Of a stretch of DNA of 64,000 nucleotides, positions 24,881-46,362 are shown in pieces. Every line of letters begins with the position of its first letter. The stretch's first letter is position 1. The notes beneath the pieces were generated by a model that saw nothing but the letters and a program-made list of their open reading frames with translations, searched no databases and was not told where the DNA came from. The translations under genes and the position numbers were made by a program. This DNA comes from a virus (Duplodnaviria > Heunggongvirae > Uroviricota > Caudoviricetes): the IMG/VR virus record IMGVR_UViG_3300042448_001193; one strand, given 5' to 3'.

Positions 24881-24894
24881 TTTTATTCCTTTTG

Positions 24895-26688
24895 TTATTG
24901 GCAAGCTAGGCATTCATCACCACCAATGATTGCACTCAAGTCCAATTCTTTGATGATTTCACGCTCAATGCGCTTTGATACCTTATCCGCTTTAGCCAAC
25001 TTCTCACTGCGGCAATAGTACAAAGTCTTCAACCCACGTTTCCATGCTAGGAAATGGCAAGCATGGATATACTTGATGTGTGCATCTGGACGGAAGAATA
25101 GATTCAAACTCTGTGCTTGATCAATGTATGGCTGTCTATCTGCGGCGTGTTCAATGACCCAACGCTGATCAATCTCCATAGAAGTCTTGAACACTTCACG
25201 ATCATTTTCATTCATCCATGTTAGGTGTTGCACCGAGCCATCGTTGGCAATGATTGACGACCAAACTTCATCAGCCCAGCCATCTGTATGAGTCTCAGCT
25301 TCTTTCTGAATGATCTTGTCCAACCAACGATTCTTGTTCAGTGAAGAACCACTCAGTGTGTCTTGGCGATAAGCATTTGCGCGGTATGGTTCAATGGATG
25401 GTGATGTATTGCCCATGATGATGGACGATGATGCATTTGGTGCAATAGCCCACATGTGGCTGAATCTGCGGCCTGTGCCGACAGCATCAGGTGCCTCACC
25501 TCGCTCTTTACCCAACTCAAGATTAGCAACAGCGCCCTTTGTATGGATGTTCTTGAACATCTGGATGTTGTATGACTTAGCCATCACACCTTCAAATGCA
25601 ATTCCCTTTTTCTGCAAGAATGCATGGAAGCCCAGTGCACCGATACCAATGCTTCGCTCACGCATAGCAGAGAATTTAGCCCTTGCGATGGTGTCTGGTG
25701 CATTGTCGATGAAGTATTGCAAAACGTTGTCTAACATCTCTGCGATATCACGAATGAATAGTGGATCATCTTTCCATTCATCATAGTACTCCAGATTCAC
25801 GGAAGACAGGCAACACACCGCGGTGCGGTCTTTGTTTGTTGGAAGAATGATTTCAGAACACAGATTGGATTGTGCAATCTTCAAGCCCAAGTCTTTCTGA
25901 AACTGTGGCATTGCACGATTGCTTGTGTCAATGAAGTGGATGTATGGCTCACCTGTCAACATACGCATTTCAAGGACTTGTTGCCACAACTCTTTAGCTG
26001 ATACTGTATCACGAATGGTGTTATCATGTGGATCACGGAAGTGCCAACTATCATCAGCATTTGGATCCAACATAGCCTGCTCAACCAATTGCATGAAGTC
26101 ATCGGTGATATTGATACCGTGATGCAAGTTCAAGGCCCGCATATTTGGATCACCAGTTGGCTTCCTCATATCCAAAAATAGAGGAATATCTGGATGGCTA
26201 ATATCAAGATAAGCGGCATAAGAACCGCGGCGAGTACGGCCCTGCCTATAGGCGAGGCTTGATGCATCATAAGTCCTAAGATGAGGCATGATGCCAGTAG
26301 ACTTGTCATCAGCAGAACGAATAGCGAATCCAATTCCAATACCTCCGCCGAGCATACTCAGCCAGTTTACCTCCGAGAGACAATCCACCAAACCTTCTGC
26401 ACTATCGTGGAGATATGGTAGAAAGCAAGAAATAGGTAGGCCCCGGCTGCTACGACCAAAAGAAAGGATAGGTGTAGAATAGCTGAGCCAATGCTTAGAA
26501 GAATATTCATACAACCTCTGAGCATGTGCTTGATTAGATCCAAAAGTTTTGCTGACAAACGCGAATCTCTCCTGTGGTGATTGTTCCTCATCTTTCATGT
26601 AGCTTTCTTTAAGGCGCTTCCTACCTAAATCATCGAATAGATTATCCCGAGAATAATCCACTCTAATATCGTGAACGATACTTTCCAT
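24895..26688 (-). CDS. nrdA: ribonucleotide reductase class I alpha subunit (short form without N-terminal ATP cone)
   Basis: SNLCSEI active-site motif; 597 aa. Confidence 0.8.
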   Translation of the reverse strand: MESIVHDIRVDYSRDNLFDDLGRKRLKESYMKDEEQSPQERFAFVSKTFGSNQAHAQRLYEYSSKHWLSYSTPILSFGRSSRGLPISCFLPYLHDSAEGLVDCLSEVNWLSMLGGGIGIGFAIRSADDKSTGIMPHLRTYDASSLAYRQGRTRRGSYAAYLDISHPDIPLFLDMRKPTGDPNMRALNLHHGINITDDFMQLVEQAMLDPNADDSWHFRDPHDNTIRDTVSAKELWQQVLEMRMLTGEPYIHFIDTSNRAMPQFQKDLGLKIAQSNLCSEIILPTNKDRTAVCCLSSVNLEYYDEWKDDPLFIRDIAEMLDNVLQYFIDNAPDTIARAKFSAMRERSIGIGALGFHAFLQKKGIAFEGVMAKSYNIQMFKNIHTKGAVANLELGKERGEAPDAVGTGRRFSHMWAIAPNASSSIIMGNTSPSIEPYRANAYRQDTLSGSSLNKNRWLDKIIQKEAETHTDGWADEVWSSIIANDGSVQHLTWMNENDREVFKTSMEIDQRWVIEHAADRQPYIDQAQSLNLFFRPDAHIKYIHACHFLAWKRGLKTLYYCRSEKLAKADKVSKRIEREIIKELDLSAIIGGDECLACQ

Positions 26689-29863: not shown

Positions 29864-30077
29864 CTGGTGGTCCTAATCTAGGGTCTCTCTGCCCTTTGAA
29901 TACATGTTCAGGGCAAGTTCTTGTCACATCACATGCTGGTTTTTGACAAACTGGTTTATCCCAGTTTTCTGGATTTTGGCAAGGATAGCGAAATCTATCA
30001 CCACCAAAAATAGCTAGTGCTAGAGGTAAAAGAATTAATACACCTAGCCACTTAAATAATTTCACATCACTGTTCAT
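29784..30077 (-). CDS. N-terminal TM, Cys-rich small protein (97 aa)
   Basis: ORF upstream of endolysin. Confidence 0.4.
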   Translation of the reverse strand: MNSDVKLFKWLGVLILLPLALAIFGGDRFRYPCQNPENWDKPVCQKPACDVTRTCPEHVFKGQRDPRLGPPDENKNVLGAVAPATCPAPAKGEACAK

Positions 30078-30703
30078 TAGTGTGCTCCCAAGACATGGAG
30101 CGCATGTTCATAATGCTTGATACGATCCTCAAGACCAATAGTGCCGCCGTTGATTCGCTTTGTCAATGTAACAATATCACCCTTGTCAGCCCACTGATTC
30201 AGATTGTTTGTTTCCCAGAACCAGCAAGCTGATTGTGCAGCACCTTCAAACGTCAACAGATATTCGGACGCATCTTCTACTGAAATTTGTAGAGATTCTG
30301 CAAACCATGTGTAGTTGCTCTTGCCCGTCAATTGAATCAAGCCCTTGCCAGCATAGCGCCAGCCGTCACCAGTTTCTGGTGCACCATTGCCCATACGATT
30401 AGCATACACCAGATTAGCAATAGCTTCCTGCTTGTTTGGCTTACTTGCATATTCGTTTGCCATAGCATCAGTTGGAAAATACTTTGGAAAAATCTTGCGT
30501 AGAGTTACAGCCTTATAATTCAGATTTTCTTTGAGTACCATGAAGTTACCAGACTCATGGGCACACTGTGCAACAAATGCTGCGATACGCTGTGGTGTAT
30601 TGATGTTATAATCAGGCAGCAATTGTGACAGCGCGGCATGCCAGTTGTCGATGTATGGATTCTTCGGTAGAAGTTTCCTTAGTTGGTCTTTAGTTAGTTC
30701 CAT
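30077..30703 (-). CDS. endolysin, glycoside hydrolase family 19 (AAFVAQCAHESGNF)
   Basis: GH19 catalytic motif; 208 aa. Confidence 0.75.
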   Translation of the reverse strand: MELTKDQLRKLLPKNPYIDNWHAALSQLLPDYNINTPQRIAAFVAQCAHESGNFMVLKENLNYKAVTLRKIFPKYFPTDAMANEYASKPNKQEAIANLVYANRMGNGAPETGDGWRYAGKGLIQLTGKSNYTWFAESLQISVEDASEYLLTFEGAAQSACWFWETNNLNQWADKGDIVTLTKRINGGTIGLEDRIKHYEHALHVLGAH

Positions 30704-30969
30704 TATTGTAACACCTCAAATATTTTTTGTTGTTTTTCATGCCACTCAATCCATGCATCCATTTTGACTGCACAGCTATAATACATGTTGTAATTCTCGG
30801 TAACATTTTTTGCAATATCACTCAACTTTGCGTCCTCAGCTAACAGCTTCAGTGGAGCACATTTTTGTTTCAGCATAAGTGGAGCATCTGGAAATTTCAT
30901 AGTGACGGGCACAGTTGTTGAACAACCCACCAACAGAAATACCATAAAGCATGTTATGATTGATTTCAT
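30703..30969 (-). CDS. o-spanin (outer-membrane lipoprotein, lipobox LLVGC)
   Basis: 88 aa; signal plus Cys; immediately follows i-spanin. Confidence 0.6.
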   Translation of the reverse strand: MKSIITCFMVFLLVGCSTTVPVTMKFPDAPLMLKQKCAPLKLLAEDAKLSDIAKNVTENYNMYYSCAVKMDAWIEWHEKQQKIFEVLQ

Positions 30970-31421
30970 TTTTTTGCATCCGGCGGTGTTGCTGCTTTGT
31001 TCAGTGAAATTATGAATTCTTTAGGTATTTCACACTCACCGCCAGCGATAAATTTTGTGTCGTACTTGATAACCTCTTTGTCAACATACTTGATAACTTC
31101 TTCACCACGCTCTTTAACGATCTTTGTATTGTTGACCACTTTCTCAACAATTTTGACATTCTCTTCCGCAGCTTTGGCTTGCGCTTCAGCGACTTTGATT
31201 TGAAGTTCCTTAACTCTTGCTTCCCACTGTTCGTTGTTACTGATTGCACCTGCCATGTAAGTGCCCAATGCTATCAAAATAATAGACACCATCTGTATCG
31301 GTGTCTTATAGACATATACAAACGGAATGAACTTCATGACAAAAGTTGCAGCAAGACCTAATACACCAGCTAAAAAGCAAGCATAGAAAATCCAGTTAGG
31401 AAGCCATTGCAAAATCCACAT
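30966..31421 (-). CDS. i-spanin (N-terminal TM, coiled-coil periplasmic domain)
   Basis: 151 aa; ATGA overlap with o-spanin. Confidence 0.6.
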   Translation of the reverse strand: MWILQWLPNWIFYACFLAGVLGLAATFVMKFIPFVYVYKTPIQMVSIILIALGTYMAGAISNNEQWEARVKELQIKVAEAQAKAAEENVKIVEKVVNNTKIVKERGEEVIKYVDKEVIKYDTKFIAGGECEIPKEFIISLNKAATPPDAKK

Positions 31422-32145: not shown

Positions 32146-32508
32146 TTAGCTTTCGTCTTCCCCTTCCAGTTCAGACATTGCTTGCTCTACACCACTTTCA
32201 TCCATAATCTCAGCATAAAAATCATAGTATCCATCATCCGTTGGATAATACAGAATATACAGAAAACTATCGCCAGATAAGTGTGTTGCTAATTCTTCAC
32301 CTTCAGTGTTCAAATCATAAAGGGACTCAAATGCGATTCCCTCAAGATAAAGTATTTTACGAATCTTTGCGATACCCGATTCTGGTGTCAAGACAGGCTG
32401 AGTTAGCTCAACCATCAACAACAGATTGAGTTTACCCTGCGTTACTGAGTCAATGGAGACTTCATCTCCACCATCCATTGACTCCGTGATGAATTCTTTG
32501 AAATTCAT
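32146..32508 (-). CDS. small acidic protein with T4 CTS-like leader MNFKEFITE|S; candidate packaged internal protein
   Basis: N-terminus resembles T4 IP leader MKTYQEFIAE. Confidence 0.5.
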   Translation of the reverse strand: MNFKEFITESMDGGDEVSIDSVTQGKLNLLLMVELTQPVLTPESGIAKIRKILYLEGIAFESLYDLNTEGEELATHLSGDSFLYILYYPTDDGYYDFYAEIMDESGVEQAMSELEGEDES

Positions 32509-33068
32509 TAGCTGTCTGCAAACACTGTGTCATCGGAAGCGTCAGCAACACCTGCTTGACCGATGCTGCCCATAGCAACAAGAGTCTCTGTGTGTTCGCG
32601 CCCGACACGACCACCCATGGTGATTGTAATTGATACGTTAGAGTTTGGCACCGCGCCGATTGTTGGTGCAGCCAAGTAGTTACCACCAGTTGTCAGTGTA
32701 ATACCAGTAATCAACTTTGCACCGTTTGTAACGATACGTGCGTTAGCGGAAGTGTTACCTGTGCCACCGCCAGTGAATGTCAAGAATACGTTACCGTCAG
32801 GTGAGTATGAACTTGCATTCGCTGTAAGTGTTGCAACAGGACCTGTGCCTTGCTTTACAACAACCCAACCTGCGTGTGCTCCTTTTGGATTAGCCGCAAC
32901 GCCCTGTTCAGTACTGTCAACACCGAAAATGCCAACAGCTTGTCTAGGTGTGAATGCACCGATAGTTGTGCTACCAAACAGTGTTGCTCCGTTTGCATTG
33001 TTAGTAGCTGCAACGCCTGCGTGTTTTGGTGCCGCGTTGCTTGAATCTGATTTTGCCCATAGTGTCAT
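32508..33068 (-). CDS. Gly/Thr/Ala-rich beta protein, possible virion structural/decoration protein
   Basis: 186 aa, composition. Confidence 0.45.
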   Translation of the reverse strand: MTLWAKSDSSNAAPKHAGVAATNNANGATLFGSTTIGAFTPRQAVGIFGVDSTEQGVAANPKGAHAGWVVVKQGTGPVATLTANASSYSPDGNVFLTFTGGGTGNTSANARIVTNGAKLITGITLTTGGNYLAAPTIGAVPNSNVSITITMGGRVGREHTETLVAMGSIGQAGVADASDDTVFADS

Positions 33069-33094
33069 TTATGACTCCTTTTGTTATTGTTTAT

Positions 33095-34762
33095 TTATGT
33101 TTTGATGATCTGTGATGATAGCTCAGGTTCAGCTTGGAATGTATCAGCTTTTTCTTTGCTAGATGACTTAGAATTCTTAGCCAAATCTTTTACGATGCCA
33201 GCAGTCTTAGACAGTGAACGTTTCGCAGGTGTGCTTGTTTTCTCAAAAGAATCTTCCGGCTCTTGCTCTTCTTTTAGACCTGCTTGTTTACGTGCAGCAG
33301 TCTTTGCGAGGTGCTTAACTCTAGACATTGCTGTGTGTTTTGCGCCAGATTTGTCTGTTGTCACTTTTGTTGTATTTTTGGTATAAGGACCATCAAATGG
33401 AACCTCATAACGCTCTTTACCCAAGTCTGTTGCAGTTTGTTCAGCAGTAATGATAGGTGTAGGCTTCGCAGGCTTCTTAGCTGGTCCGGATGTGAAACGA
33501 CCAGCGTCCGGATTCTCGTTGGAGTTGCTAGTTTGACCAACTTCTTCCGCCACAACACTCTCAGCTTTGTACTTCTTAAACATATCAGTACCTTTTCTTG
33601 GTGCAAGACCTTGTGTGCGATATGCAGCAGCAGAAACAGCAGCGTATCGTTTTGTCTTCTTACTCGCCTCAGCGTTTGTGCCGGTGCCAGGCAATTCTCT
33701 TGCGCTGTCCATTGCTTTATTGACATAGGAGCCAAGAGTTTTCTTTGACAACTCATCAATCTGCTCAACTTCTTCCTTCATCCCTGTACGGCGAGACTCA
33801 CCTTCAATGTATGAGTGTAGTGATTCTACATCACTTTGAACTTTAGATAGTTTGTTCTGATACCACTCTTCAATTTCACCACCCATCTCAATGAACTCAA
33901 GAATTTCTTCAGCGGCATACTTGATGAAGTGTAGTTGCGTTTGGGCCATCTCAGTTTTTTCGGTGGTATCCGATTCAGCTTGCTCATTGATTTCAGCTTG
34001 TTTCAGAATACCTTTGACCAATGGTGCCTTTAATTGACGATGACGTGGAACTGGAATGTGGTGCTTTGCTTCTGGATGTGTGTATACATCGTGGCTACCT
34101 GATGTGCGCGAAAGTTTCCAACCACGCTTCTTCAGATGTTGATGCACAGCACGGGTATCCATGTTAGCACCAGGCATTTCATCTAGTTGCTCAACATCAA
34201 CAGACTCATCCCACTGCTTACCACGTGCCGCATTTCTAGCCGCAGATTTTGCACCATAGTTTTGTTGCAGTCTCTCAGCATCATACTTATGTACTGTAGC
34301 GCCTTTGACTTTCTTTGCAACGTTCTCGGCATGAGACTTGGTATCAAATGTTTTCCAGTGACGACCATTGACATGTACTGAGTGATAGTCTTTGGCGTCA
34401 GCTTCGGCCAGTTCAACCTCTTCATTAGTCTGTGAGTTTTTCAAATCCTTCTCGGATGGTGCACCCTCTGAGCCAGGCTTACGCATACGTTCACCTGAAC
34501 CTTTTTTGATTCTTTCACGCTTGGCATGAATGTTGTCCCACAGACCAGCTTCTTCAATGGTTTCTTCTTCTTTGATGGATTTGCCAGCAGATTTATCACC
34601 ATAAGTTGCCTGACGTTTTTTAGCAAGGTCGAGCTTATCTTTGACAGCTTTTCCCAACTTCGGATCAGCCTTCAGCATCCATCCTGTTCCAAGAGACTTT
34701 TTACCCTCTTCCAAAATGTCCTCACCGCGGACAAGACTTGCAATCTGCTTGAAACTTCTCAT
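33095..34762 (-). CDS. large charged protein with CTS-like leader (MRSFKQIASLVRGE|D) and internal HicA/YcfA-like domain (KKRGWKLSRTSGSHDVYTHPEAKHHIPVPRH ... KGILKQA)
   Basis: start set at ATG overlapping upstream stop (TAATG); HicA motif recognised by eye. Confidence 0.5.
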   Translation of the reverse strand: MRSFKQIASLVRGEDILEEGKKSLGTGWMLKADPKLGKAVKDKLDLAKKRQATYGDKSAGKSIKEEETIEEAGLWDNIHAKRERIKKGSGERMRKPGSEGAPSEKDLKNSQTNEEVELAEADAKDYHSVHVNGRHWKTFDTKSHAENVAKKVKGATVHKYDAERLQQNYGAKSAARNAARGKQWDESVDVEQLDEMPGANMDTRAVHQHLKKRGWKLSRTSGSHDVYTHPEAKHHIPVPRHRQLKAPLVKGILKQAEINEQAESDTTEKTEMAQTQLHFIKYAAEEILEFIEMGGEIEEWYQNKLSKVQSDVESLHSYIEGESRRTGMKEEVEQIDELSKKTLGSYVNKAMDSARELPGTGTNAEASKKTKRYAAVSAAAYRTQGLAPRKGTDMFKKYKAESVVAEEVGQTSNSNENPDAGRFTSGPAKKPAKPTPIITAEQTATDLGKERYEVPFDGPYTKNTTKVTTDKSGAKHTAMSRVKHLAKTAARKQAGLKEEQEPEDSFEKTSTPAKRSLSKTAGIVKDLAKNSKSSSKEKADTFQAEPELSSQIIKT

Positions 34763-34763
34763 A

Positions 34764-36557
34764 TTACTCTCCCTTGGCTTGCTTGGTGGCCGTAGCGTAC
34801 ATAACAGACTTAGCATCTTTGCCATAACGCTCTTTGAAGCCAGCAATGTTCTTCTTCATGCCTTTGACATTCTTTTCCAATGCAGCCTTTTCAGCGGTGG
34901 TCAATGAACGCTCTTCAATTTGCTCAACTTCTTCCTTAGCTAAACGATCAACAGCTTTGCCCATGTTTTCGCGGCGCTTCCAAGACTTAGCAAAAGTTTT
35001 ATCTGCTTTCTCCATGCTCTTTCTAGCATCATTGTAGCGTGAATCTTTACGTGCAGCTTCTGAATCATTAGCATGTTGACGAGTCAATGCGCCCTTGTGT
35101 GCAACATCATGAGATGCTTTCTTGACATAGGATGCTAGTGTAGACTTCTTTAGTTCATCTAGTTGTTCAAATTCTTCAGTTTGCATGAAGTTTTCAACAT
35201 CTTCAACAGTAAATTCAAGTTCATCTAAGTTTTCATATTCTTCTCTAGTCAAACGTTTAACAGCTTTTTTAACGCCGCGGTCTCGCTTTTTAATCACACG
35301 CTGATCTGCTTTCATTTCGCGGGCGTTACGAACCTGATCAGCTTTTTTTTCAGGTTGGGCACCATACGCCACGCTTGCAATATTATGCTCTCTATCTGCT
35401 TGACTTCTTACAGCTTTATTGATGTATGAACCGAGTGTCTTCTTACTTAACTCATCAATTTGTTCAACTTCTTCTTTAGTCAAACGATCTACCGCTCTTT
35501 GTATACCAGTAGTTGAATTTTTAAGTCTACGGAAGTTTCCTGGCGTCCTACGATTTCGTTCCAGTGTAGTAAGATGATGACCTACCTCGTGTGCGGCATA
35601 CCTCACCCTGCCTTGGGCTTTATTGATATATTTACCAAGAGTCTTCTTGCTCAGTTCATCTAGTTGTTCAAATTCTTCAGTTTGCATGAAGTTTTCAACA
35701 TCTTCAACAGTAAATTCAAGTTCATCTAAGTTTTCATATTCTTCTCTAGTCAAACGTTTAACAGCGCGATCAACGCCGCGATTTCGCTTTTTAATCACAC
35801 GTTCATCTTTTTTTATTTCGCGGGCTTGCTGTTTCACATCAGCTTTTTTTTCAGGTTGGTCGCCAAAGTGCAGACGTCCAATATTATAATCTTTATTTGC
35901 TACACTGCTTACAGCTTTATTGATGTATGAACCGAGTGTCTTCTTACTTAACTCATCAATTTGTTCAACTTCTTCTTTAGTCAAACGATCTACCGCTCTT
36001 TGTATACCAGTAGTTGAATTTTTAACTTTACGGACATGTTGTGGGGACGGTTTAAGTTTAGAAACATCACGTCCTATCATGTATGATCTATTTCTCACAT
36101 TATCTCGGGCAGCCTTAATATATTTACCAAGAGTCTTCTTGCTCAGTTCATCTAGTTGTTCAACAGATTCTTGCTTGACAGCTTGCACAGCAGGCTTTGC
36201 AACTTCAGCTTTGCTCTTGCCAATGGACTTGTCTTGTGCTATCTTGATCTCTTTGTTGAACTCTTCTTGAGATGCTTCTTCTTTTGTATACTTCTTAGTG
36301 TACACAGTGCCTGTGGAGATTTTCTTAGCATCGTGGCCAGTCTTCTCACCTTTTTCAGCAGTTTGGCGTGGAGTATTCTTCCAGTCAAATGGGCTAGCAG
36401 GCTTCTTGGCTTCCTCTTTGCGCAACAACTTGAAGTCGTGTGCATCAACTTTGCCGTTTTTGTTTTTATCGATCTTGTGTTGATCGCCTTTCAGTGCTTC
36501 GTCCACAACAGCTTTCACTGCTTCGGCCACTGATTTTAGAATTTTATCGTTGAACAT
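34764..36557 (-). CDS. large K/E-rich repeat protein with CTS-like leader (MFNDKILKSVAE|A); about 5 copies of EQ(I/L)DELSKKTLG(S/K)YINKA
   Basis: 597 aa; internal 0.5-kb tandem nucleotide duplications. Confidence 0.55.
   Translation of the reverse strand: MFNDKILKSVAEAVKAVVDEALKGDQHKIDKNKNGKVDAHDFKLLRKEEAKKPASPFDWKNTPRQTAEKGEKTGHDAKKISTGTVYTKKYTKEEASQEEFNKEIKIAQDKSIGKSKAEVAKPAVQAVKQESVEQLDELSKKTLGKYIKAARDNVRNRSYMIGRDVSKLKPSPQHVRKVKNSTTGIQRAVDRLTKEEVEQIDELSKKTLGSYINKAVSSVANKDYNIGRLHFGDQPEKKADVKQQAREIKKDERVIKKRNRGVDRAVKRLTREEYENLDELEFTVEDVENFMQTEEFEQLDELSKKTLGKYINKAQGRVRYAAHEVGHHLTTLERNRRTPGNFRRLKNSTTGIQRAVDRLTKEEVEQIDELSKKTLGSYINKAVRSQADREHNIASVAYGAQPEKKADQVRNAREMKADQRVIKKRDRGVKKAVKRLTREEYENLDELEFTVEDVENFMQTEEFEQLDELKKSTLASYVKKASHDVAHKGALTRQHANDSEAARKDSRYNDARKSMEKADKTFAKSWKRRENMGKAVDRLAKEEVEQIEERSLTTAEKAALEKNVKGMKKNIAGFKERYGKDAKSVMYATATKQAKGE
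35130..36180. repeat. imperfect tandem duplication of about 0.5 kb (2 copies plus partial third) inside gene 34764..36557
   Basis: blocks 35141-35285 vs 35642-35775 and 35413-35525 vs 35914-36025 nearly identical; partial at 36117-36170. Confidence 0.75.
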
Positions 36558-36583: not shown

Positions 36584-38236
36584 TTAGTTATGTTCCTGCC
36601 AGTTTACAATGCCCACAGCATCATCGTTGTTGGTAGTGGCTATTGCTGCCAAACACCATATGTCTGATACACCTGCTATAGTTCTACCTAACTGTTGACT
36701 AAAGTCTATTTCGTTGCTAGTAACTTGAGCGGATCCGCCCTTATTAGATCCTACAAATACACCTTGCGTTATTACTTTGCCGCCAGATAATGCTGTAGCA
36801 GAGATGTCATACTCTACTGTACTGTCTGTGTCAGCACTGGTCCAATTAGCATCAGTCAATGTGGGATTGAGAATAATGCGATATGAAAAGGCTGCTTGTT
36901 GTAGTCCAAATACATCGAACGCAGTGGGCACTACAATAGAGTCCGGGGCTGTTGACTTCATGCGTAAACAGACTAATGGTCTGTACACGGTATTGCTGAG
37001 GTCCTTACCAGTTAGTGCTGTTCCTATGGCACGGGTAAAACTGCGATTACTATAACCGCCTTCCGACATAACTGTACTACAGATTGCTCTCATTGAGGCT
37101 GCGGGTCCAGTGCTGATCAATTCATATCGTAGGGGTAACGTAGCACTGGTCATATAGACCTTGTTTAATATGTTGGCATGATGAAAACTGTGACAAACGA
37201 TGAACTGTCCGTTAATCACAAATCCACAACGAACTGTCCCTACACCTAACCATTCTATGTCTGTCCAGAAGATTTGTGCTTTGGTTACATCTAATGTTAT
37301 TCCGCTGGCTCCAGTTCCATCTAATTTATCACCATTCCACAAACTTTGAGGGAATTTTTCCGTAGTGTCATCTACTGAACCAGAAGTGTATTTTCTAATA
37401 ACTAGATTTTTTGTGGTGTCTGCTACTTCAAAGTAGATGCCGTTCTGTGCTCCGAAATAGCCTGCTCGTTGTGTAACGCCAGCGGTAGGAGCGTTCATAA
37501 CAAAGGTCAACAGAACCAATAGACTCTTACCAGGCTGGTAGGAAAATACCTGTTTAGTCTGACGAATGGCCGATCCTGCTCCTGTAGCGCTCATTAGAAT
37601 AGAACTTTCGTTAGGTAAGAAAGAGGAAGTGACAGAGCCTGTGTCCACTTGGTCCCACTTGTATGTATTGTCAAAGTAACGCAGACCACCATCGAACAGT
37701 GTATATGGATTACTTACACGCAACCGTCCAAACGCATCAGTGGCCGCTGCCCCCAAAGTTACAGCACTGGTGCCAGTTAGGGTAGCATTTACATTACCAC
37801 TAATAGGTATAGGATTGCCGCTGTCGTTTTTAATCTCTACCTCAGGCATAGTGCCAATGTTAACTGTAGGAGTGCCGCTGATAGTAACTGTGGTATTTTC
37901 CAATGCTGACAATGTGTTTGCCGATAAACTAACGATGCCGTCTGTGCCAATGTTAACATTTCCGCCTATTGGCATATAAGATACAGTCAATAAACCACTT
38001 GTGCCAACTTCCGTAATGTGTGTATGAACTGGGTTTTCTGGCGAACTTGCGACATTAACCGTATCCACAAAATTCACGTTTCCAGTAATTGTGATATTTT
38101 CTGAACCAAGAGTTACTGGTAAAGGATTTGAGAGAGAAACGATATCACCATTAGCGTTATTAGCCAACATCATCACCTCATATCGAGATGAAATCTTCGG
38201 ATCTAGCGCACCAATATCTTTATTAAATTGTGCCAC
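36584..38236 (-). CDS. 550-aa probable virion structural protein (no CTS leader)
   Basis: long ORF, beta-rich, many NxT/S. Confidence 0.45.
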   Translation of the reverse strand: MAQFNKDIGALDPKISSRYEVMMLANNANGDIVSLSNPLPVTLGSENITITGNVNFVDTVNVASSPENPVHTHITEVGTSGLLTVSYMPIGGNVNIGTDGIVSLSANTLSALENTTVTISGTPTVNIGTMPEVEIKNDSGNPIPISGNVNATLTGTSAVTLGAAATDAFGRLRVSNPYTLFDGGLRYFDNTYKWDQVDTGSVTSSFLPNESSILMSATGAGSAIRQTKQVFSYQPGKSLLVLLTFVMNAPTAGVTQRAGYFGAQNGIYFEVADTTKNLVIRKYTSGSVDDTTEKFPQSLWNGDKLDGTGASGITLDVTKAQIFWTDIEWLGVGTVRCGFVINGQFIVCHSFHHANILNKVYMTSATLPLRYELISTGPAASMRAICSTVMSEGGYSNRSFTRAIGTALTGKDLSNTVYRPLVCLRMKSTAPDSIVVPTAFDVFGLQQAAFSYRIILNPTLTDANWTSADTDSTVEYDISATALSGGKVITQGVFVGSNKGGSAQVTSNEIDFSQQLGRTIAGVSDIWCLAAIATTNNDDAVGIVNWQEHN

Positions 38237-38614
38237 TTAGCAATTCCATTTTCTTAGTGCGAGAGCTTTACGGGACGGCTCTCCGTTAGGTTTCTTCATC
38301 GGACCTTCCACTCCACCCATTCTAGCACAGAATGACTTGCGACGGTTAGCAGCTTTACTGCCCGGTGTCAATTTTGATGGTGGTGTTGTAACCGGTGCTT
38401 TTAGATTGCCGCCATCTTTTCTGTTGTAGTAGTCACGACCCTTTTGAGTTAGACCACCAGTAGAGCTTTTTAGTCCTTTAGCATCAACTGCGGCTTCCAC
38501 TACAGTTTCTTCTTTCATACAAGAATCGGGTGAGTATGCTTTCTTACCTGGAACAGGTTTATAGCCTTTCCAGCAGCGCCCAGCTTCAGTGACAAAATCT
38601 TTATAGTTTTTCAT
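38237..38614 (-). CDS. small protein with CTS-like leader MKNYKDFVTE|A
   Basis: 125 aa; ATGA overlap with upstream 843-aa gene. Confidence 0.5.
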   Translation of the reverse strand: MKNYKDFVTEAGRCWKGYKPVPGKKAYSPDSCMKEETVVEAAVDAKGLKSSTGGLTQKGRDYYNRKDGGNLKAPVTTPPSKLTPGSKAANRRKSFCARMGGVEGPMKKPNGEPSRKALALRKWNC

Positions 38615-41142
38615 AGGTAATTCTTTCCTCTGAACGTGCTAAGTGATATGCCATGTTTAGCCAGTTCATCTTGTTTTTGTGCACCAATTGACGCTGTGGT
38701 TGAATCCCCACCCATTTCAGCAACAGGTTTCTTTTTCAGAGGATTCACTTTGCCATTCTTGTCATTGATTTCGCCCATGTCACGCCCAATGCCTTCGCCA
38801 CCAGCAGCCATGGACATGCCAGTTTCTATGCCTTTGTCGATGGCTTCTTTGAACGTGTTTTTGGCTTGCGAGAGGGTGAGCTTGCCTTTAAAGCGGCTGG
38901 CTTCGTGGATGTTTTTGGTGCTGGCTTCGGCACTGGCACTGGCACTTGTTCCTGCACTGTTACCACTGGAACTTCCACTTCCACTTTCGGTAATGGCTCT
39001 GGTACTACTACGACCGGAACTTCCACTTTCGGCAATGGTTGTGGCTCCGGTGCTGACTCCGGCACTACGGCTGGTGCTTCCACTTTCGGCAATGGTTGTG
39101 GCTCCGGTTCCACTGGCGGTTTGCTCTTCACAAAGAAACTTTTCACGAATTTCAACATTTACATTCTCCTTTAATTTAACTATGTAACCTTTGTCTGTCT
39201 TAACGACTTCACCACCTTTGGTGTGTGCGTCTTTAGCAGCATTGTTTCGTATTGCATATACTTTAGGCTTGTTGCCTGATGCAATATATGTAGCTCCATC
39301 TTTTACGGCAGTTCTTTCACCACTGATACTTTCGGAGACAAACATGGATTTTCCGAGCGTCAATAGATTGTATGCACCAGAATCAGACATTTCTGTGTGG
39401 TCCACGTGCTCCTCAACTTCCTGCTCTTCCACTTCTGCATCTCCATTGCCAGTCAGCATCTTCATTGCTTTTTGTAGCTCTTCTGGGGTATCAGCTTTGA
39501 AAGTAACTGAAACGGCCTCAAAAAGATTCTGAAAATCTTCGTTGATAGACTCTTTGACTGGTTTCTTGGGCACAGGCTTTTGGCTACTAGCTCCACTCAT
39601 AGGAACTTCAGCAGTTTTCTTAATCATCTTTTGCTGTTCAGCGTGTGTTGGATCCTGCACCAAAGTTCCGTGAACTGTGTGATGTGTGACTTTACCATTC
39701 TTACCATATCGGCCATAGCCATAGTATTGTAGCCCAAGGCGTCTAGCTTCATCAGTTGCTTTGTTTTCGCCCTCAGCGGAGTGTGGAATAGACAGTTCCG
39801 TGCCTTTCTTAGGAACAGGCAAGGTGTCTTTCTTCTGTAGTTCACCAGCAACCCAAGCCTTAGCTTGCTCATTCTTAGGTGGTGCTTGAACAAACTTTTG
39901 GACAGTCTTGAAGATGTTGTTCATCTCTTCTTTCTTGGCTTTGACCACTTCTGGTGCTGCGGTGCGCAAGTCTTCAGAGTTATCAAATTCAATATAGCTG
40001 TTGCCAAACAACTTAGCCATCTCTGGGCGTGAATTGTTTACTGCGTCCCACTTTTCTTTACGAATATTCTCAGGAACTGTACGACCACCTCTTTGCCCAC
40101 GCTCAACGTTTCTCTGTGCAGAAATTTCATCGCGTGTAACAACGGCAACCATAGAAGTTTCATAGCCAATTTCTTCTAAGTTTTTCTTTATCTTGGCATA
40201 CTTTGCGGGATCATCGCCTGTGCCATTGATAATGATGCCGTTGCGACCCAACAGCGCCAGCTTCTGCTTCAACTCTGTCATGTCTTTTGCTTTACCGCGA
40301 ACAAGTGTCCGTGCATCAGCTTCAGTCTCTGGCATTTTCTTGTCCAGATTATTCTTGTCCATCAGAAACTCAAGTGCTTTGTCTGAGTTGATTTCAATCA
40401 AGCCATGACCAGCAAGTGTGTTATCCAACACATAGTCTTTACCTGAGCCTGGACCGCCCGATAGAAACACAGCCTTGAAGATGCCTTTATCGTGGACACC
40501 CTCAGATAGGATCATCTGAATTTGTGATCGGAAATCTTCTTTGACTTGCATTCCCTTGCGCACATCATTATACAATTCTTTAGCGTGTTCTGGCGCTACG
40601 TGACTTGGAATGCCTTTTTTGAATTCTTTGAAGTTGCCTTTTGATGCATGGCTACGCATCTTGGATGCAGACATACCAGATACACCCTCAGCATCAGGAT
40701 CACGCTCACCAGCGGAGTGTACGTGAATACCACGAAACTTGAAGTATCCATGCGTACCTTTTACGCCATTGTATTTGTGTAAAATCTTCTCATACTCACC
40801 AGTTCTATCGGATCCTGCAACCATGTGCAAATGTGTAGCGCCAGCTTTGTGGAGTTTTGATGCTTGAGCCAGAAAGTTTGGATGTTCTTTACTGGAGGTT
40901 GTGATATTCGTGTCAGGAAAATATCGTTGTGCGTGTTTGACTTTTTGCTCACCTGAGAGTGGATTCTTCTCAGCGTCCTGTGAATGCGATAGAACCACGT
41001 GGTGTGTTCCTCTCACAGACTTAGCAACATCTTTGACTTTATCAACCAGTTTTGCATGACCGGTTGTTGGTGGATTCATGCGTCCGAACGCAAGGACCGC
41101 ATGTTTTTCTGTTGTTTCTTCTAAATATTGTCTGAACTTCAT
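38611..41142 (-). CDS. 843-aa fusion protein: CTS-like leader MKFRQYLEE|T; HxGH nucleotidyltransferase domain (GRMNPPTTGHAKL); P-loop kinase domain (FLSGGPGSGKD); repetitive low-complexity C-terminus (GATTIAESGS repeats)
   Basis: motifs read from translation; NadR-like (NMNAT plus kinase) architecture is inference. Confidence 0.5.
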   Translation of the reverse strand: MKFRQYLEETTEKHAVLAFGRMNPPTTGHAKLVDKVKDVAKSVRGTHHVVLSHSQDAEKNPLSGEQKVKHAQRYFPDTNITTSSKEHPNFLAQASKLHKAGATHLHMVAGSDRTGEYEKILHKYNGVKGTHGYFKFRGIHVHSAGERDPDAEGVSGMSASKMRSHASKGNFKEFKKGIPSHVAPEHAKELYNDVRKGMQVKEDFRSQIQMILSEGVHDKGIFKAVFLSGGPGSGKDYVLDNTLAGHGLIEINSDKALEFLMDKNNLDKKMPETEADARTLVRGKAKDMTELKQKLALLGRNGIIINGTGDDPAKYAKIKKNLEEIGYETSMVAVVTRDEISAQRNVERGQRGGRTVPENIRKEKWDAVNNSRPEMAKLFGNSYIEFDNSEDLRTAAPEVVKAKKEEMNNIFKTVQKFVQAPPKNEQAKAWVAGELQKKDTLPVPKKGTELSIPHSAEGENKATDEARRLGLQYYGYGRYGKNGKVTHHTVHGTLVQDPTHAEQQKMIKKTAEVPMSGASSQKPVPKKPVKESINEDFQNLFEAVSVTFKADTPEELQKAMKMLTGNGDAEVEEQEVEEHVDHTEMSDSGAYNLLTLGKSMFVSESISGERTAVKDGATYIASGNKPKVYAIRNNAAKDAHTKGGEVVKTDKGYIVKLKENVNVEIREKFLCEEQTASGTGATTIAESGSTSRSAGVSTGATTIAESGSSGRSSTRAITESGSGSSSGNSAGTSASASAEASTKNIHEASRFKGKLTLSQAKNTFKEAIDKGIETGMSMAAGGEGIGRDMGEINDKNGKVNPLKKKPVAEMGGDSTTASIGAQKQDELAKHGISLSTFRGKNYL
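38885..39125. repeat. about 60-bp tandem repeats encoding GATTIAESGS(S/T)xRS units
   Basis: ccactttcggcaatggttgtggctccggt recurring; generates spurious overlapping ORFs. Confidence 0.7.
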
Positions 41143-41196
41143 TTACTCCGCCTCTACAGCAAGTTTCATTATAGTCTATTTAGCAAAAAACAATTG

Positions 41197-41889
41197 TCAA
41201 TCTCTGACTAATTCTCCAGTCCTGGCGATCATTCCTGTGCAATACACACGGTCAACCTCAACCAGCTTATCTTTTGGAATGTGCAAAAAATGCACATGTT
41301 CTGTGTCCAATTGTCCAAGAATATTGAGATTTTTCTGTAATATTTCAAAATAATCATCAGCTAGACTGGAGCACAGTGAGAACAGTCTTGTGTCCAAGCA
41401 ATGTGTTGCACCAGAAACAACAGGATTCATCCATGTTTCATTGCGGCGCTTAAACACATAATGTCCTTGCTTGTCTGTATAATATGAAATGTCAAAGCCA
41501 TCATCAAGGACATATCTACCAGACAACTTGAATATTCTATCACACACGATTCCTTGCCTCTTTATGAAATTCAGCATTTCCATAAGAATGACTGTTTCAC
41601 CATGACTCTTCATGCCATGAGTTGAAAACATCTTGACTGCATGATGATCATTGAAACTCACAACCTTACAATATTCTTGCAGTTCATCTATCATTCCACC
41701 AAGTGGCGCAACTGAGATATCAGCGAGAAAGATCATAGCTGTTGGATCTTTCTCACGAATAGATTTCAGTGTGTCCAGTGTGTCGTTGAACCTCTGTATT
41801 GTATTGAAAACGCCAGCTTGTGTGAGCAAAGCGGAAGTTACGATGAATACATTCATGTGTGATTGAAGTCTCTGAATATGACAAACCAA
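41197..41889 (-). CDS. hypothetical protein, possible nucleotide-sugar transferase (230 aa)
   Basis: ORF in transferase cluster; weak. Confidence 0.35.
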   Translation of the reverse strand: MVCHIQRLQSHMNVFIVTSALLTQAGVFNTIQRFNDTLDTLKSIREKDPTAMIFLADISVAPLGGMIDELQEYCKVVSFNDHHAVKMFSTHGMKSHGETVILMEMLNFIKRQGIVCDRIFKLSGRYVLDDGFDISYYTDKQGHYVFKRRNETWMNPVVSGATHCLDTRLFSLCSSLADDYFEILQKNLNILGQLDTEHVHFLHIPKDKLVEVDRVYCTGMIARTGELVRD

Positions 41890-42683
41890 TAGTCAGGATT
41901 GACATAATTGATTTTGAAGTCGTGCGGTGACATTTTGTATGACATGAGCAACATGGACTGATCATCATCAATCAAATCCACTTCAATGTAGTTCATTATT
42001 GCCCGTGTCATGAGTGTTGCCATTTGCTTCCACTTTTCAACTGGTGCAACGATGTGACAGCCTTGGACGTACACATTATTTGTCTTGACGATATTGAATA
42101 TAGGTTCAGCTTCGTCAGGGTTGGAGAAACAGAACAGATTGATTAGATTCTGTGTGTTGAACTTCCATTCCATTCCAGCAGGACAGAATGTATCTTCACG
42201 CACATATCCAAAGTCTAACCAAGCAGCCGTGCCTGTTGACACATGACCCATCTTAATTGCTGTATTGACAAACAAAGATTTGGCGTAATTTATGAACACA
42301 TAATGTGGCGACCAATACTCAGGCATCGTTGGTTGATTCAGATGCGCAATAAACTCAGGGCGTCTTTGAATGTGTGCGATACGACTCAGTAGCTGGTTGT
42401 TGTCTTCAAAAATGTTATCAGCAACAACACAGATGATATCGTCACGATAACTCTTGATGGTGTCAATGAATTTGCTTTCGGTGAAAACAACGATAGGATT
42501 CTTTAGCTCAGTTAGTCGCTTGAATCTGTCCAGATATGTCTGTGTGTCACGCTTTAGGTAGTGTGGCAGTTGCTGACCATTTAGAGTACCTTCCCAATTT
42601 GACCTACCAATGTCAAAGAACGCAGTTACAATTGTGACAGTCTCACTCATTTCTTGATCCAGTACCATACATCGTTTGCACAA
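41853..42683 (-). CDS. hypothetical protein, possible glycosyltransferase (276 aa)
   Basis: ORF in transferase cluster; weak. Confidence 0.35.
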   Translation of the reverse strand: MCKRCMVLDQEMSETVTIVTAFFDIGRSNWEGTLNGQQLPHYLKRDTQTYLDRFKRLTELKNPIVVFTESKFIDTIKSYRDDIICVVADNIFEDNNQLLSRIAHIQRRPEFIAHLNQPTMPEYWSPHYVFINYAKSLFVNTAIKMGHVSTGTAAWLDFGYVREDTFCPAGMEWKFNTQNLINLFCFSNPDEAEPIFNIVKTNNVYVQGCHIVAPVEKWKQMATLMTRAIMNYIEVDLIDDDQSMLLMSYKMSPHDFKINYVNPDYWFVIFRDFNHT

Positions 42684-43201
42684 GTTTGTACTTCTGCGCC
42701 GTGCTTGGCTGCAAATTCATTTACCGCACGATTTACACCTTCGATGACATTGTAATCGTGACCTGCAAAAACACCACCAGATTTTACTTTACTGAAGTAA
42801 TTCTCACAGTCAATCGTGACTTGTTCGTATGTGTGTATTCCATCAATAAATATGAAATCGAGTGAGTCATCTTCAAAATGATTGACCATATTATCCGAGA
42901 AATCACGATGCATGACGAATCTATCACCGAACTCAGCACAGTAATCCAGAATCTGTTTGTGCATGTCAACACGATCTGTCAGGAATCTACCATTCCAGTC
43001 TTCATAGTTGACATACGGATCAATACCATGCAACACCAACTCAGGTAAGTTTTTCAGCAAATAGTGTGTTGTGTGGCCTTCAGCACAGCCGATCTCCAAA
43101 CCAACCTGTGGTCCCTTATCACGCAATAGTAGCAGAAGTCCTTTACCTGAACAAATCCACTCATTGGCAGGATTAGTATTCATTACAATGTAATCGCTCA
43201 T
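42647..43201 (-). CDS. class I SAM-dependent methyltransferase (GLEIGCAEGHTT), macrocin-O-MTase/FkbM-like
   Basis: SAM-binding motif I. Confidence 0.5.
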   Translation of the reverse strand: MSDYIVMNTNPANEWICSGKGLLLLLRDKGPQVGLEIGCAEGHTTHYLLKNLPELVLHGIDPYVNYEDWNGRFLTDRVDMHKQILDYCAEFGDRFVMHRDFSDNMVNHFEDDSLDFIFIDGIHTYEQVTIDCENYFSKVKSGGVFAGHDYNVIEGVNRAVNEFAAKHGAEVQTCANDVWYWIKK

Positions 43202-43210
43202 AATATTCTT

Positions 43211-44824: not shown

Positions 44825-45130
44825 TTACTGACCTGGAGTATCTCGTTTGTATCGCTTGACTAGCAAGTCTGTGCCCTCTTGCCCTGCGCCAGCTGGTGGC
44901 AGAATGTCTGGATTAGGAGACTTCTTTTCTTCATGCACACTTTTATGTAGCTGAACTCCAGTGACTTTCTGGACCATATCCCAAGCATCCTTTGTTCGCT
45001 TGTTCTTCACATGATCATCAAATTTCTTTTTCTGTTCAGGTGTAGCTTTTTGCTTGAATTTGATAAGTTCCATAATGCCGATGTTACCAGCATAAGATGC
45101 TTCTTTCACCAGTTCTTTGAATGACTGCAT
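44825..45130 (-). CDS. small basic protein with CTS-like leader MQSFKELVKE|A
   Basis: start at ATG overlapping upstream stop (TAATG). Confidence 0.45.
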   Translation of the reverse strand: MQSFKELVKEASYAGNIGIMELIKFKQKATPEQKKKFDDHVKNKRTKDAWDMVQKVTGVQLHKSVHEEKKSPNPDILPPAGAGQEGTDLLVKRYKRDTPGQ

Positions 45131-46362
45131 TATTTGTCCCACGCTTTCTGTGCGGTGAAGTTTGCATGACTGAATTCAAGTCTATCAACCAACTTGACGG
45201 CATTACCTTTTAGTCGATCAACAGCAACAAAGCCTTCTGGATTCGTGACCTTAAATCCATCATCTGTACGTAAGAATGCACCAGTAACTTGACGCATCTG
45301 TTGTAACTTTTTGATAATGATATTCTTGGAATCAACGATCATATTCATGATATCAAAAATCTTAACAAGCTCGGCAAAGTTGCTTCGATAGAATCGCATG
45401 ATTTCATTCTTTTCAGCTTGACGCTTGAGTTTAGTGTCTTCTCTTTTAGCGGCAATAATCTCTTTGTTCAGCTTGTCTTCAATCCATTTCAACAGTCCTT
45501 TCGCATGTTCCGTTGTATCTTTGATGTGTTCACCGGAACGAACTTTCGTGTTGTTGTATGTTTTGATCTGAACATTGAATATCTCAGAGGTAGCAATACG
45601 ATTCAGGGTCATGCTACTGGTTCTTTGGAACAGGGATCCTGCTTGAGATAAAATAGCTGTGATTTCTTTAGTCTCTTTTTCGGTAAATGTGACTGTACCA
45701 GATGCGTCAACGAAATATGCATCACGGAACCAAACATCCTTAGTTGCTTTCATTCTACCAATATCGATGTTGAATGAAGACTTCAAATCTGCGATTGTCT
45801 TTCCTGTGTATGCCGTATGAAACACAATACCCATTTGTGCTGTCAACATGGACTTAGCTAGTGCAGAATCTTCAGGAACCGCATACACGATTGTGTTTGG
45901 TTGAAATGTCACATACTTGACACCATCAATCGTTGCTTTCTTGATATCACCTTTAGCAAACATCATGTCGCCTTGCAGAATGCCATCGATACCAATCTTA
46001 GGCAAGTATGCTAGTGCAACCTTCAGTTTCTTATTCAGGCCTTCACCTGGATGATTTCTGTCAATATCTTCATCGGTGTAGTTCAGCTTTGCATCTTTGT
46101 TGAAGATGCCTTTTGTGGCTACAAAGAACTTACCATTCTCTGGATTAGTGCCAGCAAATACAGCAGGTGCACCGTCCCATTTTGTGGTAATGTTTACCTT
46201 GCCGTCTGAATTGCCAGCAAGCATGTCTCTGAGTGATCGCAAAAAGTTGATTGCATCTCTCGTACCAGCTACACCGCGATTTAGAACTTCTTCCTCGATA
46301 TGCTCTAGGTGAACGTTCTTGCCTTCTTTTGAGGACTCTGTTAGGAATTCTTTGAATTTCAT
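45130..46362 (-). CDS. covalent nucleotidyltransferase (ligase/capping superfamily, KxDG motif TTKWDGAP) with CTS-like leader MKFKEFLTE|S; candidate packaged RNA/DNA ligase
   Basis: motif I KWDG plus downstream DGI/K-rich motifs; start set at TAATG overlap. Confidence 0.4.
   Translation of the reverse strand: MKFKEFLTESSKEGKNVHLEHIEEEVLNRGVAGTRDAINFLRSLRDMLAGNSDGKVNITTKWDGAPAVFAGTNPENGKFFVATKGIFNKDAKLNYTDEDIDRNHPGEGLNKKLKVALAYLPKIGIDGILQGDMMFAKGDIKKATIDGVKYVTFQPNTIVYAVPEDSALAKSMLTAQMGIVFHTAYTGKTIADLKSSFNIDIGRMKATKDVWFRDAYFVDASGTVTFTEKETKEITAILSQAGSLFQRTSSMTLNRIATSEIFNVQIKTYNNTKVRSGEHIKDTTEHAKGLLKWIEDKLNKEIIAAKREDTKLKRQAEKNEIMRFYRSNFAELVKIFDIMNMIVDSKNIIIKKLQQMRQVTGAFLRTDDGFKVTNPEGFVAVDRLKGNAVKLVDRLEFSHANFTAQKAWDK

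Follow-up and report, generated by a model that had tools for sequence, protein, structure and literature searches.

The stretch of DNA analysed here, 64,000 nucleotides of the IMG/VR virus record IMGVR_UViG_3300042448_001193 (Caudoviricetes; hereafter the window), carries on its minus strand an open reading frame (ORF), 33095..34762, whose 555-amino-acid (aa) product contains a domain of the HicA toxin family (PF07927, COG1724). The frame runs from an ATG at 34762 to a stop codon at 33095-33097. A Shine-Dalgarno-like sequence, AAGGGAGAG, lies 5' of the ATG at 34775-34767, and the TAA of an upstream 597-aa ORF ends one base before it, giving a coupled start; a longer version beginning with a TTG at 34846 is unlikely, as it would overlap the upstream gene. 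The product is rich in lysine (12.8%), alanine (10.5%) and glutamate (10.5%), with 33% charged residues and an isoelectric point (pI) of 9.2, which confirms the coordinates and the highly charged composition given in a first-pass annotation of this DNA, made by a model from the letters alone. An identical protein (P0001) is encoded on 21 public contigs of up to 142.8 kb.

The HicA domain and the protein around it

Residues 206-258 match the Pfam family HicA_toxin (PF07927) with an E-value of 2.1e-12 and 47.4 bits (gathering score 27), spanning profile positions 4-58 of 58, and the protein also matches PHROG 353, 'toxin', at 1.4e-14; the HicA match is far beyond chance. An AlphaFold2 (AF2) model of the 555-aa protein, built on 67 homologues, is poor overall (mean predicted local distance difference test score, pLDDT, 53) and confident only at residues 200-258 (pLDDT 88-91). 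The cassette is modelled there as alpha-beta-beta-beta-alpha, with helices at 203-212 and 246-256 and strands at 216-221, 224-228 and 235-239. Foldseek against the PDB puts HicA structures in all of its top five places (6g26_E first; then 1whz, 4c26, 4p78), the superposition on 6g26_E having a target-normalised template modelling (TM) score of 0.84 and a root-mean-square deviation of 1.0 Å over 56 columns. A profile made from 37 diverse cassettes matches PDB HicA sequences at 1.6e-12, and cassette positions G19, W20 and H29 are invariant among these 37. H29 is His224 of the 555-aa protein, nearly invariant among the 67 aligned homologues; it aligns with the H24A position of Burkholderia pseudomallei HicA (BpsHicA; 4c26, 6g26) and forms part of a putative catalytic motif, G222-S-H224. 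HicA toxicity needs Gly22 and His24 in BpsHicA numbering (PMC11594946). By profile, fold and catalytic motif, residues 196-260 are a genuine HicA-family domain. The HicA assignment of the first-pass annotation is therefore borne out by a significant profile match together with fold and Gly-x-His; the segment it quoted is residues 210-256, and only its suggested HHpred range, 235-290, was slightly off the cassette. One trait of the family, a small mono-domain protein of 50-100 aa, is absent: the product has 555 aa and at least eight modules.

No HicB-family Pfam match was found among the ORFs at 28.4-46.4 kb, the remainder of the window not having been scanned for HicB, and HicB is likewise absent from the precomputed Pfam annotations of related loci. 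The earlier statement that no HicB-like partner adjoins the gene is upheld, and the HicA cassette is not part of a HicAB module. The acidic hairpin next after HicA in the chain (residues 261-337, net charge -13) was considered as a built-in antitoxin and rejected as an obligate partner, since only 106 of 202 long HicA proteins carry its motif, at variable distance and on either side of HicA.

About 1,500 homologues were found, and an exhaustive search with the 65-aa HicA cassette returned 246 cluster representatives. In roughly the best 100 of the 246, the cassette is embedded in proteins of 130-1097 aa; its sequence is almost invariant, yet its start position ranges from residue 8 to 766 across homologues. 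Other blocks recur in varying order and number: GWMLKADPKLG, GLWDNIHAKRERIK (phrog_16028), GRPSQRHPLEGHEYH..., the acidic helical hairpin, LSKKTLGSYVNKA..., DUF5824 and a conserved block at the C-terminus. With its few structured blocks set between low-confidence linkers, the AF2 model is consistent with a string of beads. Judged by these comparisons, the 555-aa protein is a string of conserved cassettes of about 50-160 aa, modular rather than merely low-complexity, and its first description as largely low-complexity needs revision: the cassettes are joined by [LIVM]-x-E junctions (a slash marks such a junction below). From the N-terminus, all on the minus strand, they are:

34709..34762, minus: capsid-targeting-like N-terminal propeptide, residues 1-18, MRSFKQIASLVRGEDILE, ending I-L-E; N-terminal pattern match, low pLDDT at residues 15-31.
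34550..34708, minus: GWMLKADPKLG cassette, residues 19-71, bounded by ILE/ and IEE/; recurs elsewhere in homologues, e.g. near the C-terminus of P0062.
34403..34549, minus: GLWDNIHAKRERIK..GAPS cassette, residues 72-120, bounded by IEE/ and LAE/; phrog_16028 at 8e-17.
34178..34402, minus: variable cassette, residues 121-195, ending in the linker VDVEQLDE/; L193 nearly invariant and E195 invariant in 67 homologues, low pLDDT at 180-194.
33983..34177, minus: HicA cassette, residues 196-260, MPGANMDTRAVH...ILKQAEINE; PF07927, AF2, Foldseek and cassette profile, translation checked.
34091..34093, minus: codon of His224, putative catalytic His of G222-S-H224; invariant H29 of the cassette alignment.
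33752..33982, minus: acidic helical-hairpin cassette, residues 261-337, pI 4.4, net charge -13, ending EEVEQIDE/; helices 262-292 and 297-325, pLDDT 63-77.
33269..33751, minus: LSKKTLGSYVNKA... basic region, residues 338-498, net charge +14, ending GLKE/; start motif common to the 597-aa neighbour.
33095..33268, minus: conserved C-terminal cassette, residues 499-555 and stop, ..TPAKRSLSKTAGIVKDLAK..FQAEPELSSQIIKT; columns 508-552 nearly invariant in the alignment.

HicA alone among these cassettes has an assignable activity; other members of the family add DUF5824. The GLWxNIH cassette (phrog_16028) also occurs as a stand-alone small ORF in 44 marine phage records. Excised at its boundaries, the HicA cassette is predicted to be a 65-aa protein of pI 10.4 and net charge +7.

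The first-pass annotation had also pointed to a motif in common with the neighbouring repeat protein. That motif is real: EEVEQIDELSKKTLGSYVNKA at residues 330-350 reappears in the adjacent 597-aa ORF (34764-36557) twice as EEVEQIDELSKKTLGSYINKA and in four looser variants. At the DNA level only 49 of the 63 nucleotides are identical, with synonymous changes, so that the 21-aa motif is conserved as protein. A recent DNA duplication was rejected as its source on the same count, together with a codon-family switch and the lack of any long direct repeat linking the two genes.

Cassette junctions and N-terminal sequences

Among embedded representatives (clusters at 50% identity), [LIVM]-x-E directly precedes the first Met of the HicA cassette in 87 of 87, and the stricter [LI]-x-E in 79; at P1, immediately before the cassette, every one of the 87 has Glu. 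Per position, these proteins show a background of 2.6% for [LIVM]-x-E and 1.5% for [LI]-x-E, and the three pre-cassette residues lay outside the search query, so the junction is unbiased by the search. In the 67-sequence alignment E195 is invariant, and L193 and E260 are nearly so. The rule extends to other cassettes: GRPSQ directly follows [LIVM]-x-E in 27 of 27 distinct contexts and LSKKTLGSY in 31 of 31, and the pattern holds despite differing linkers (AFLKE/, EVLEE/, EQLEE/, GKISE/, SMLE/). In the 597-aa neighbour, all eight [LI]-x-E sites fall exactly at the ends of repeat units, which measure 65-81 aa and 22 aa. Seven of the nine distinct [LI]-x-E sites of the 555-aa protein lie in low-pLDDT linkers (after residues 18, 65, 71, 120, 195, 260 and 337), and the site after residue 498 is just outside one. 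The prohead protease of phage T4, gp21, cuts after Glu in L/I-x-E (PMC9026906); cuts at 195 and 260 would release the 65-aa HicA.

A second likeness to T4 head proteins is found at the N-termini. In T4 the first ten residues, the capsid-targeting sequence (CTS), are enough for packaging, positions 4 and 7 serving targeting and positions 8 and 10 processing (PMC9026906); the internal proteins IPII and IPIII start MKTYQEFIAE/A. A loose regular expression for such starts, applied to the six-frame translation of the window, gave seven matches against 0.72 expected, with a maximum of three in 50 codon shuffles. Six of the seven are real ORF starts, and these all lie at 32.1-46.4 kb of the minus strand:

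32146..32508, minus: acidic protein, 120 aa, MNFKEFITE/S; CTS pattern, Melnitz homologue starting MKNFKNHIAE/.
Start 34762, minus: HicA polyprotein, 555 aa, MRSFKQIASLVRGEDILE/E; CTS pattern.
38237..38614, minus: DUF6321 protein, 125 aa, MKNYKDFVTE/A; CTS pattern and Pfam.
38611..41142, minus: nucleotidyltransferase (NTase)-like and Zeta_toxin/AAA_33 kinase-like protein, 843 aa, MKFRQYLEE/T; CTS pattern and domain matches.
44825..45130, minus: 101-aa protein, MQSFKELVKE/ASYAGNIG; CTS pattern, cassette also internal in the homologue P0117 after GKISE/.
45130..46362, minus: DUF6267 protein, 410 aa, MKFKEFLTE/S; CTS pattern, 50% identical to Melnitz-3 gp16 over its full length.

Homologues of the polyprotein begin MRSFKQIAS.., MKNFGELASE.., MKSFSILFTE.. 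and MKRFSDFLE... In stand-alone HicAs of about 80 aa the domain comes directly after MLTFKEFIAE/, MLTFLEFITE/, MLSFKEFISE/, MLSFKEFIVE/ or MKSFKDFLHE/, while canonical HicAs of 57-74 aa have no CTS-like leader. One stand-alone form, P0205, adjoins a DnaB-type helicase and a DUF5824+DUF6321 cassette protein, in a locus that also encodes a repeat protein carrying EEVEQIDEL and a further protein with an N-terminus similar to that of the 186-aa ORF in the window. The two kinds of signal meet in the 101-aa protein of the window, which is 59% identical over 63 aa to the internal block of P0117 (BLASTP, E 9e-23): the alignment begins at the matching junctions VKE/A and ISE/A, so a cassette can follow either a CTS or an internal junction with the same predicted mature N-terminus. 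The description of the 555-aa protein as CTS-bearing finds some support at the level of sequence, even if its own N-terminus is a looser match than those of its neighbours.

Relatives and neighbouring genes

By its gene content the window is that of a Melnitz-like, T4-type marine myophage. It encodes gp43, UvsX, gp41, gp61, gp44/62, gp45 and RegA, as well as NrdA/B and ThyX, and its gp43-like DNA polymerase is about 52% identical to cyanomyophage polymerases. For the DUF6267 gene the phage database gives Methylophilales phage Melnitz-3 (Kyanoviridae, 141 kb) as best match; megablast of 10 kb against the phage collection found no near-identical cultured phage. N-termini at the syntenic Melnitz-3 locus read MQGFKTFLSE/, MKKFSELTSELIE/, MKKFSEIIE/ and MKNFKNHIAE/, and internal QLDE/, IDE/ and LDE/ junctions precede DUF5824-type and other blocks. 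Melnitz-3 also encodes a 'prohead core serine protease' (gp21), itself starting MKLIAE/QIQE/, and a gp22 core protein. Its gp23 propeptide region ends ..AFLSE/AAPTN.., a position that we take to correspond to the T4 gp23 cut. Locus order is kept in diverged carriers: DUF6267, the Zeta-type protein, variable polyproteins including HicA, DUF7207, lysis genes, ThyX and ribonucleotide reductase (RNR). Searched by tblastn against the phage database, the whole 555-aa protein matched only through its 38-aa GLWDNIH cassette, and the HicA cassette only to classical HicA genes of the temperate phages HP1, HP2 and Bbif-1.

A link to the head comes from a different type of phage. The T7-like pelagiphage HTVC168P has, at 1448-1949, three tiny and extremely basic ORFs (35, 49 and 81 aa) between its scaffold and major capsid genes; the 49-aa ORF is the GLWxNIHAKR cassette and the 81-aa ORF a DUF6321 domain. 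This location independently links the GLWxNIH and DUF6321 cassettes to head assembly. The tiny ORFs themselves are possibly head-internal DNA-binding proteins of podophages. In T4, ipII and ipIII adjoin the lysozyme gene e, and the present cluster lies about 2.4 kb from a GH19 endolysin gene, which is a positional analogy only. The remaining annotated neighbours are:

30077-30703, minus: GH19 endolysin, lysis cassette (30077-31421).
30703-30969, minus: LysC/Rz1-like lipoprotein, lysis cassette.
30966-31421, minus: membrane-anchored coiled-coil protein that could be the inner spanin, lysis cassette.
34764..36557, minus: 597-aa repeat polyprotein with [LI]-x-E sites at repeat-unit ends; phrog_5709.
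41853-42668, minus: HtrL_YibB.
42647-43201, minus: Methyltransf_24.
43211-44095, minus: weak PHROG glycosyltransferase match.
44080-44808, minus: Glycos_transf_2.

The 597-aa ORF contains a tandem duplication of about 500 bp (35116-35415 versus 35617-35916, 82% identity), and the C-terminal 48-aa block of its product (..GKDAKSVMYATATKQAKGE) is about 63% identical to small ORFs of Synechococcus phages S-B05, S-H68 and S-B43. Two genes away from the HicA ORF, a 550-aa ORF with a GTG start (36584-38236, minus strand) belongs to phrog_1645, 'virion structural protein'; identity is about 44% with proteins of the cyanomyophages S-RIM12 and S-RIM8 and likewise with one from a podophage, Puniceispirillum phage HMO-2011, and the protein is therefore shared across morphotypes. 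The 843-aa protein combines a cytidylyltransferase-like N-terminal domain with a Zeta_toxin/AAA_33 kinase-like domain and a weak PHROG polynucleotide-kinase match, and has a long Ser/Gly/Thr-rich tail with repeated TTIAE/SGS units; its Zeta_toxin domain is the second toxin-family domain within the putative head-cargo cluster. In the DUF6267 protein, which has no PDB or NCBIfam matches, a 'TKWDGAP' segment resembles the KxDG motif of nucleotidyl-transferring ligases; searches of the neighbouring CTS proteins against NCBIfam and PDB sequences gave nothing useful.

The last four genes of the list form a sugar or modification cluster (41197-44808, minus strand) that lies between CTS-type genes. 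Directly downstream of the HicA gene is a Gly/Thr/Ala-rich protein of 186 aa (32508-33068, minus strand), whose syntenic counterpart in Melnitz-3, alike in size and N-terminus, carries the annotation 'putative S-layer protein'; at the same position a related locus (L006) has a 99-aa ORF with a similar N-terminus. Farther away, two ORFs resemble GIY-YIG homing endonucleases (59765-60325, plus strand; 16242-16649, minus strand), of which one, on the opposite strand, separates the clamp-loader gene (gp44) from the sliding-clamp gene (gp45) and the other is SegE-like. A staphylococcal-nuclease-like (SNase) ORF (24443-24913, minus strand), whose N-terminus looks like a signal or lipoprotein sequence, is flanked by the genes for NrdA and thioredoxin. 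Scanning the window for Rfam families and for tRNAs gave no match.

Proposed packaging and cleavage, and comparison with known systems

We lean towards reading the 555-aa protein as a head-targeted polyprotein that would be packaged and cut by a gp21-type protease. Its T4-CTS-like N-terminus would take it into the scaffolding core of the prohead, where the protease, cutting after L/I-x-E, would sever the conserved [LIVM]-x-E junctions and release several small, mostly basic proteins. One of them would be the 65-aa HicA-type putative endoribonuclease (residues 196-260), with its Gly-x-His retained. Only tentatively do we extend this to a complete scheme, in which bead-string polyproteins are cut into miniature effectors and an antitoxin-free HicA RNase, which gains its activity only once within the sealed prohead, passes into the next host together with the DNA. 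HicA would be set free in the closed prohead alone, and this confinement is proposed to be the reason why no HicB antitoxin is needed. The 65-aa HicA and the other small cassettes would remain with the DNA and leave the head with it at the next infection, as T4 internal proteins and Alt do; HicA, in a His224-dependent manner, might then act on the RNA of the new host, through a fast shut-off of mRNA or tmRNA (transfer-messenger RNA) or by countering a host defence. The neighbouring CTS-tagged NTase/Zeta-type kinase and DUF6267 proteins would, under the bead-string scheme, be co-injected enzymes. Such cleavage is the most likely fate of the 555-aa protein, and the effector would then be a HicA of about 65 aa in place of the whole chain. 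Delivery by the capsid had been put forward by the first-pass annotation; the comparative evidence makes it considerably more plausible, with packaging, cleavage, ejection, RNase activity and RNA target all being what we infer from sequence.

Several observations weigh against packaging and cleavage. The N-terminus of the polyprotein, MRSFKQIASLVRGEDILEE, matches the T4 CTS more loosely than those of its neighbours and of several homologues: MRSFKQIASLVRGEDILE has an aromatic residue at position 4 and a hydrophobic one at 7, lacks Glu at 10, and reaches its first I-x-E at 16-18. Enrichment of [LI]-x-E over composition within the 555-aa protein is modest, and two of the sites (289, 299) fall inside the predicted helical hairpin. 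P3 at the junction is sometimes V or M; on the downstream side of HicA the usual form is V-x-E or I-x-E, and a few members have no junction there. The conserved EEVEQLDE might serve as a linker, for structure or for recombination, instead of a protease site, and the model does not account for the Met that invariably opens the HicA cassette. The genes for gp21, gp22 and gp23 lie outside the window, their presence being deduced from Melnitz and from the T4-type core genome, to which gp21 belongs (PMC9026906). No cultured phage in the phage database has this HicA-cassette family. Upstream of the HicA gene the T4-type late promoter TATAAATA was not found; a variant of it, CATAAATA, overlaps the stop codon of the gene (33092-33099, minus strand) and, being 22 nucleotides upstream of the 186-aa ORF, more likely serves that next gene. 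A sigma-70-like pair, a perfect TTGACA and TATAAT with a non-canonical 21-nucleotide spacer, precedes the 843-aa CTS-type gene (41150-41195, minus strand).

A rather improbable variant retains location in the head and processing, and makes the HicA-fold cassette a nucleic-acid-binding or DNA-condensing protein, or a decoy for a host HicB/HicAB defence, instead of an RNase effector. The strong basic charge of the cassette, its place among other small basic cassettes and the occurrence of sister cassettes as tiny basic proteins in podophage head modules all fit such a role. The HicA fold is moreover that of the double-stranded-RNA-binding domain, and some toxic HicAs, BpsHicA among them, are without demonstrated RNase activity (PMC11594946). 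Charge would not by itself keep Gly-x-His invariant or nearly so over hundreds of diverged cassettes, with a change of His to Tyr only in rare members (P0067), and this argues for a retained active site.

An intact multidomain chain, packaged and injected without cleavage as a 'polyvalent protein', is unlikely; HicA would then work within the chain, and the acidic hydrophobic-x-E linkers would act as flexible spacers or as recombination joints for shuffling. Polyvalent proteins are widespread; they combine 2-15 disparate domains, are predicted to enter the cell along with phage DNA, and include Zeta-toxin-type domains, HicA not being listed among their domains (PMC5512222). A Zeta_toxin protein neighbours the HicA locus, cassette order is highly plastic, and a shared linker could favour recombination. 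What speaks for cleavage instead is that the gp21 pattern, hydrophobic at P3 and Glu at P1, is kept where the other linker residues differ, and that the same cassettes stand alone behind a cleavable-type CTS, their junctions in register. In DNA the motif common to the 555-aa protein and its 597-aa neighbour has diverged (49/63), hence leaves no recent recombination footprint.

A cytoplasmic protein for host takeover or anti-defence, outside the virion and possibly early or middle, looks decidedly unlikely; the MKxF.. starts and x-E junctions would in that case reflect something else, for instance a shared translation-initiation region or sites of a different protease. The promoter picture upstream of the HicA gene and its CTS-type neighbour is compatible with this, NTase/kinase and DUF6267 enzymes would be unusual capsid cargo, and the GLWxNIH cassette occurs in podophages that lack a T4-type prohead protease, sometimes adjoining RNR genes. 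Yet several of the N-termini are near-identical to the experimentally defined T4 CTS down to the terminal hydrophobic-x-E, one neighbour belongs to the virion structural family phrog_1645, and the sister cassettes of HTVC168P sit between scaffold and capsid genes; a free cytoplasmic HicA without antitoxin would also endanger the phage's own mRNAs. Finally, a small toxin gene nested in or merged with the longer ORF and translated from Met196, as a degenerate toxin-antitoxin module, would account for the Met that starts the cassette in 87 of 87 and for its canonical HicA size (PMC11594946), but is highly improbable: no Shine-Dalgarno sequence precedes the Met196 codon (GAGCAACTAGATGAA ATG), unlike the true start, hundreds of homologues conserve an unbroken frame on either side of the cassette, the same linker also precedes cassettes starting with residues other than Met, and no HicB is nearby.

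If the head-targeted polyprotein and its delivery hold true, a toxin without antitoxin would be carried as an inert precursor and freed only in the closed capsid, proteolytic compartmentalisation replacing the antitoxin, and polyprotein logic would multiply the cargo per targeting event. The T4 internal-protein and CTS paradigm, so far drawn from enterobacterial T-even phages, would reach abundant ocean myophages. A large group of marine phage proteins now labelled 'hypothetical', numbering at least about 1,500 homologues, or about 100 clusters formed at 50% identity, would become candidate injected effectors of host takeover or counter-defence, and the tags that direct targeting and cleavage in nature might be put to use in loading phage heads with foreign proteins. 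Literature searches returned no report of a CTS-linked or polyprotein-embedded HicA, nor of such cassette polyproteins.

With the HicA toxins of type II HicAB systems (BpsHicA, 4c26/6g26; Yersinia pestis HicA3, 4p78; Escherichia coli), the present cassette shares Pfam family, fold, Gly-x-His and, once excised, the 65-aa size. It differs in being embedded in a 555-aa multi-cassette protein without HicB partner or bicistronic operon, in being preceded by a protease-site-like junction (or, in stand-alone relatives, a CTS-like leader), and in its carrier, a lytic phage of the T4 type where those toxins are found on chromosomes, plasmids or temperate phages; the phage modules given in a review of HicAB are temperate-phage HicAB only (PMC11594946). 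Also comparable are IPI, IPII, IPIII and Alt of T4, with which the system has in common MKTYQEFIAE-like N-termini (clearest in the neighbours and the stand-alone relatives), hydrophobic-x-E sites, predicted products that are small and basic, a hyperplastic position close to the lysis genes and the notion, drawn here from sequence comparison, of pre-made effectors delivered with the genome. T4 has one CTS per protein, whereas here many modules are concatenated with internal junctions; the cargo includes HicA and has no sequence homology to the mature T4 internal proteins. Polyvalent proteins (Iyer 2017, PMC5512222) place unrelated effector domains, some of them toxin-derived, in one chain that is predicted to reach the host with the DNA, much as is proposed here, and in the present case a neighbouring gene encodes a Zeta-type domain. 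The cassettes here are by contrast very small (about 50-80 aa) with regular protease-type junctions, their predicted processing depends on a capsid maturation protease rather than on an embedded peptidase domain, and HicA is uncatalogued in that survey. Finally, T4 gp22, gp67 and gp68 and the inner-body or ejection proteins of phiKZ and SPN3US are head-internal proteins cut at several x-E sites by a gp21-type protease (PMC9026906). Their fragments are mostly discarded, whereas each fragment here corresponds to a conserved, independently occurring module and so looks like a product rather than waste.

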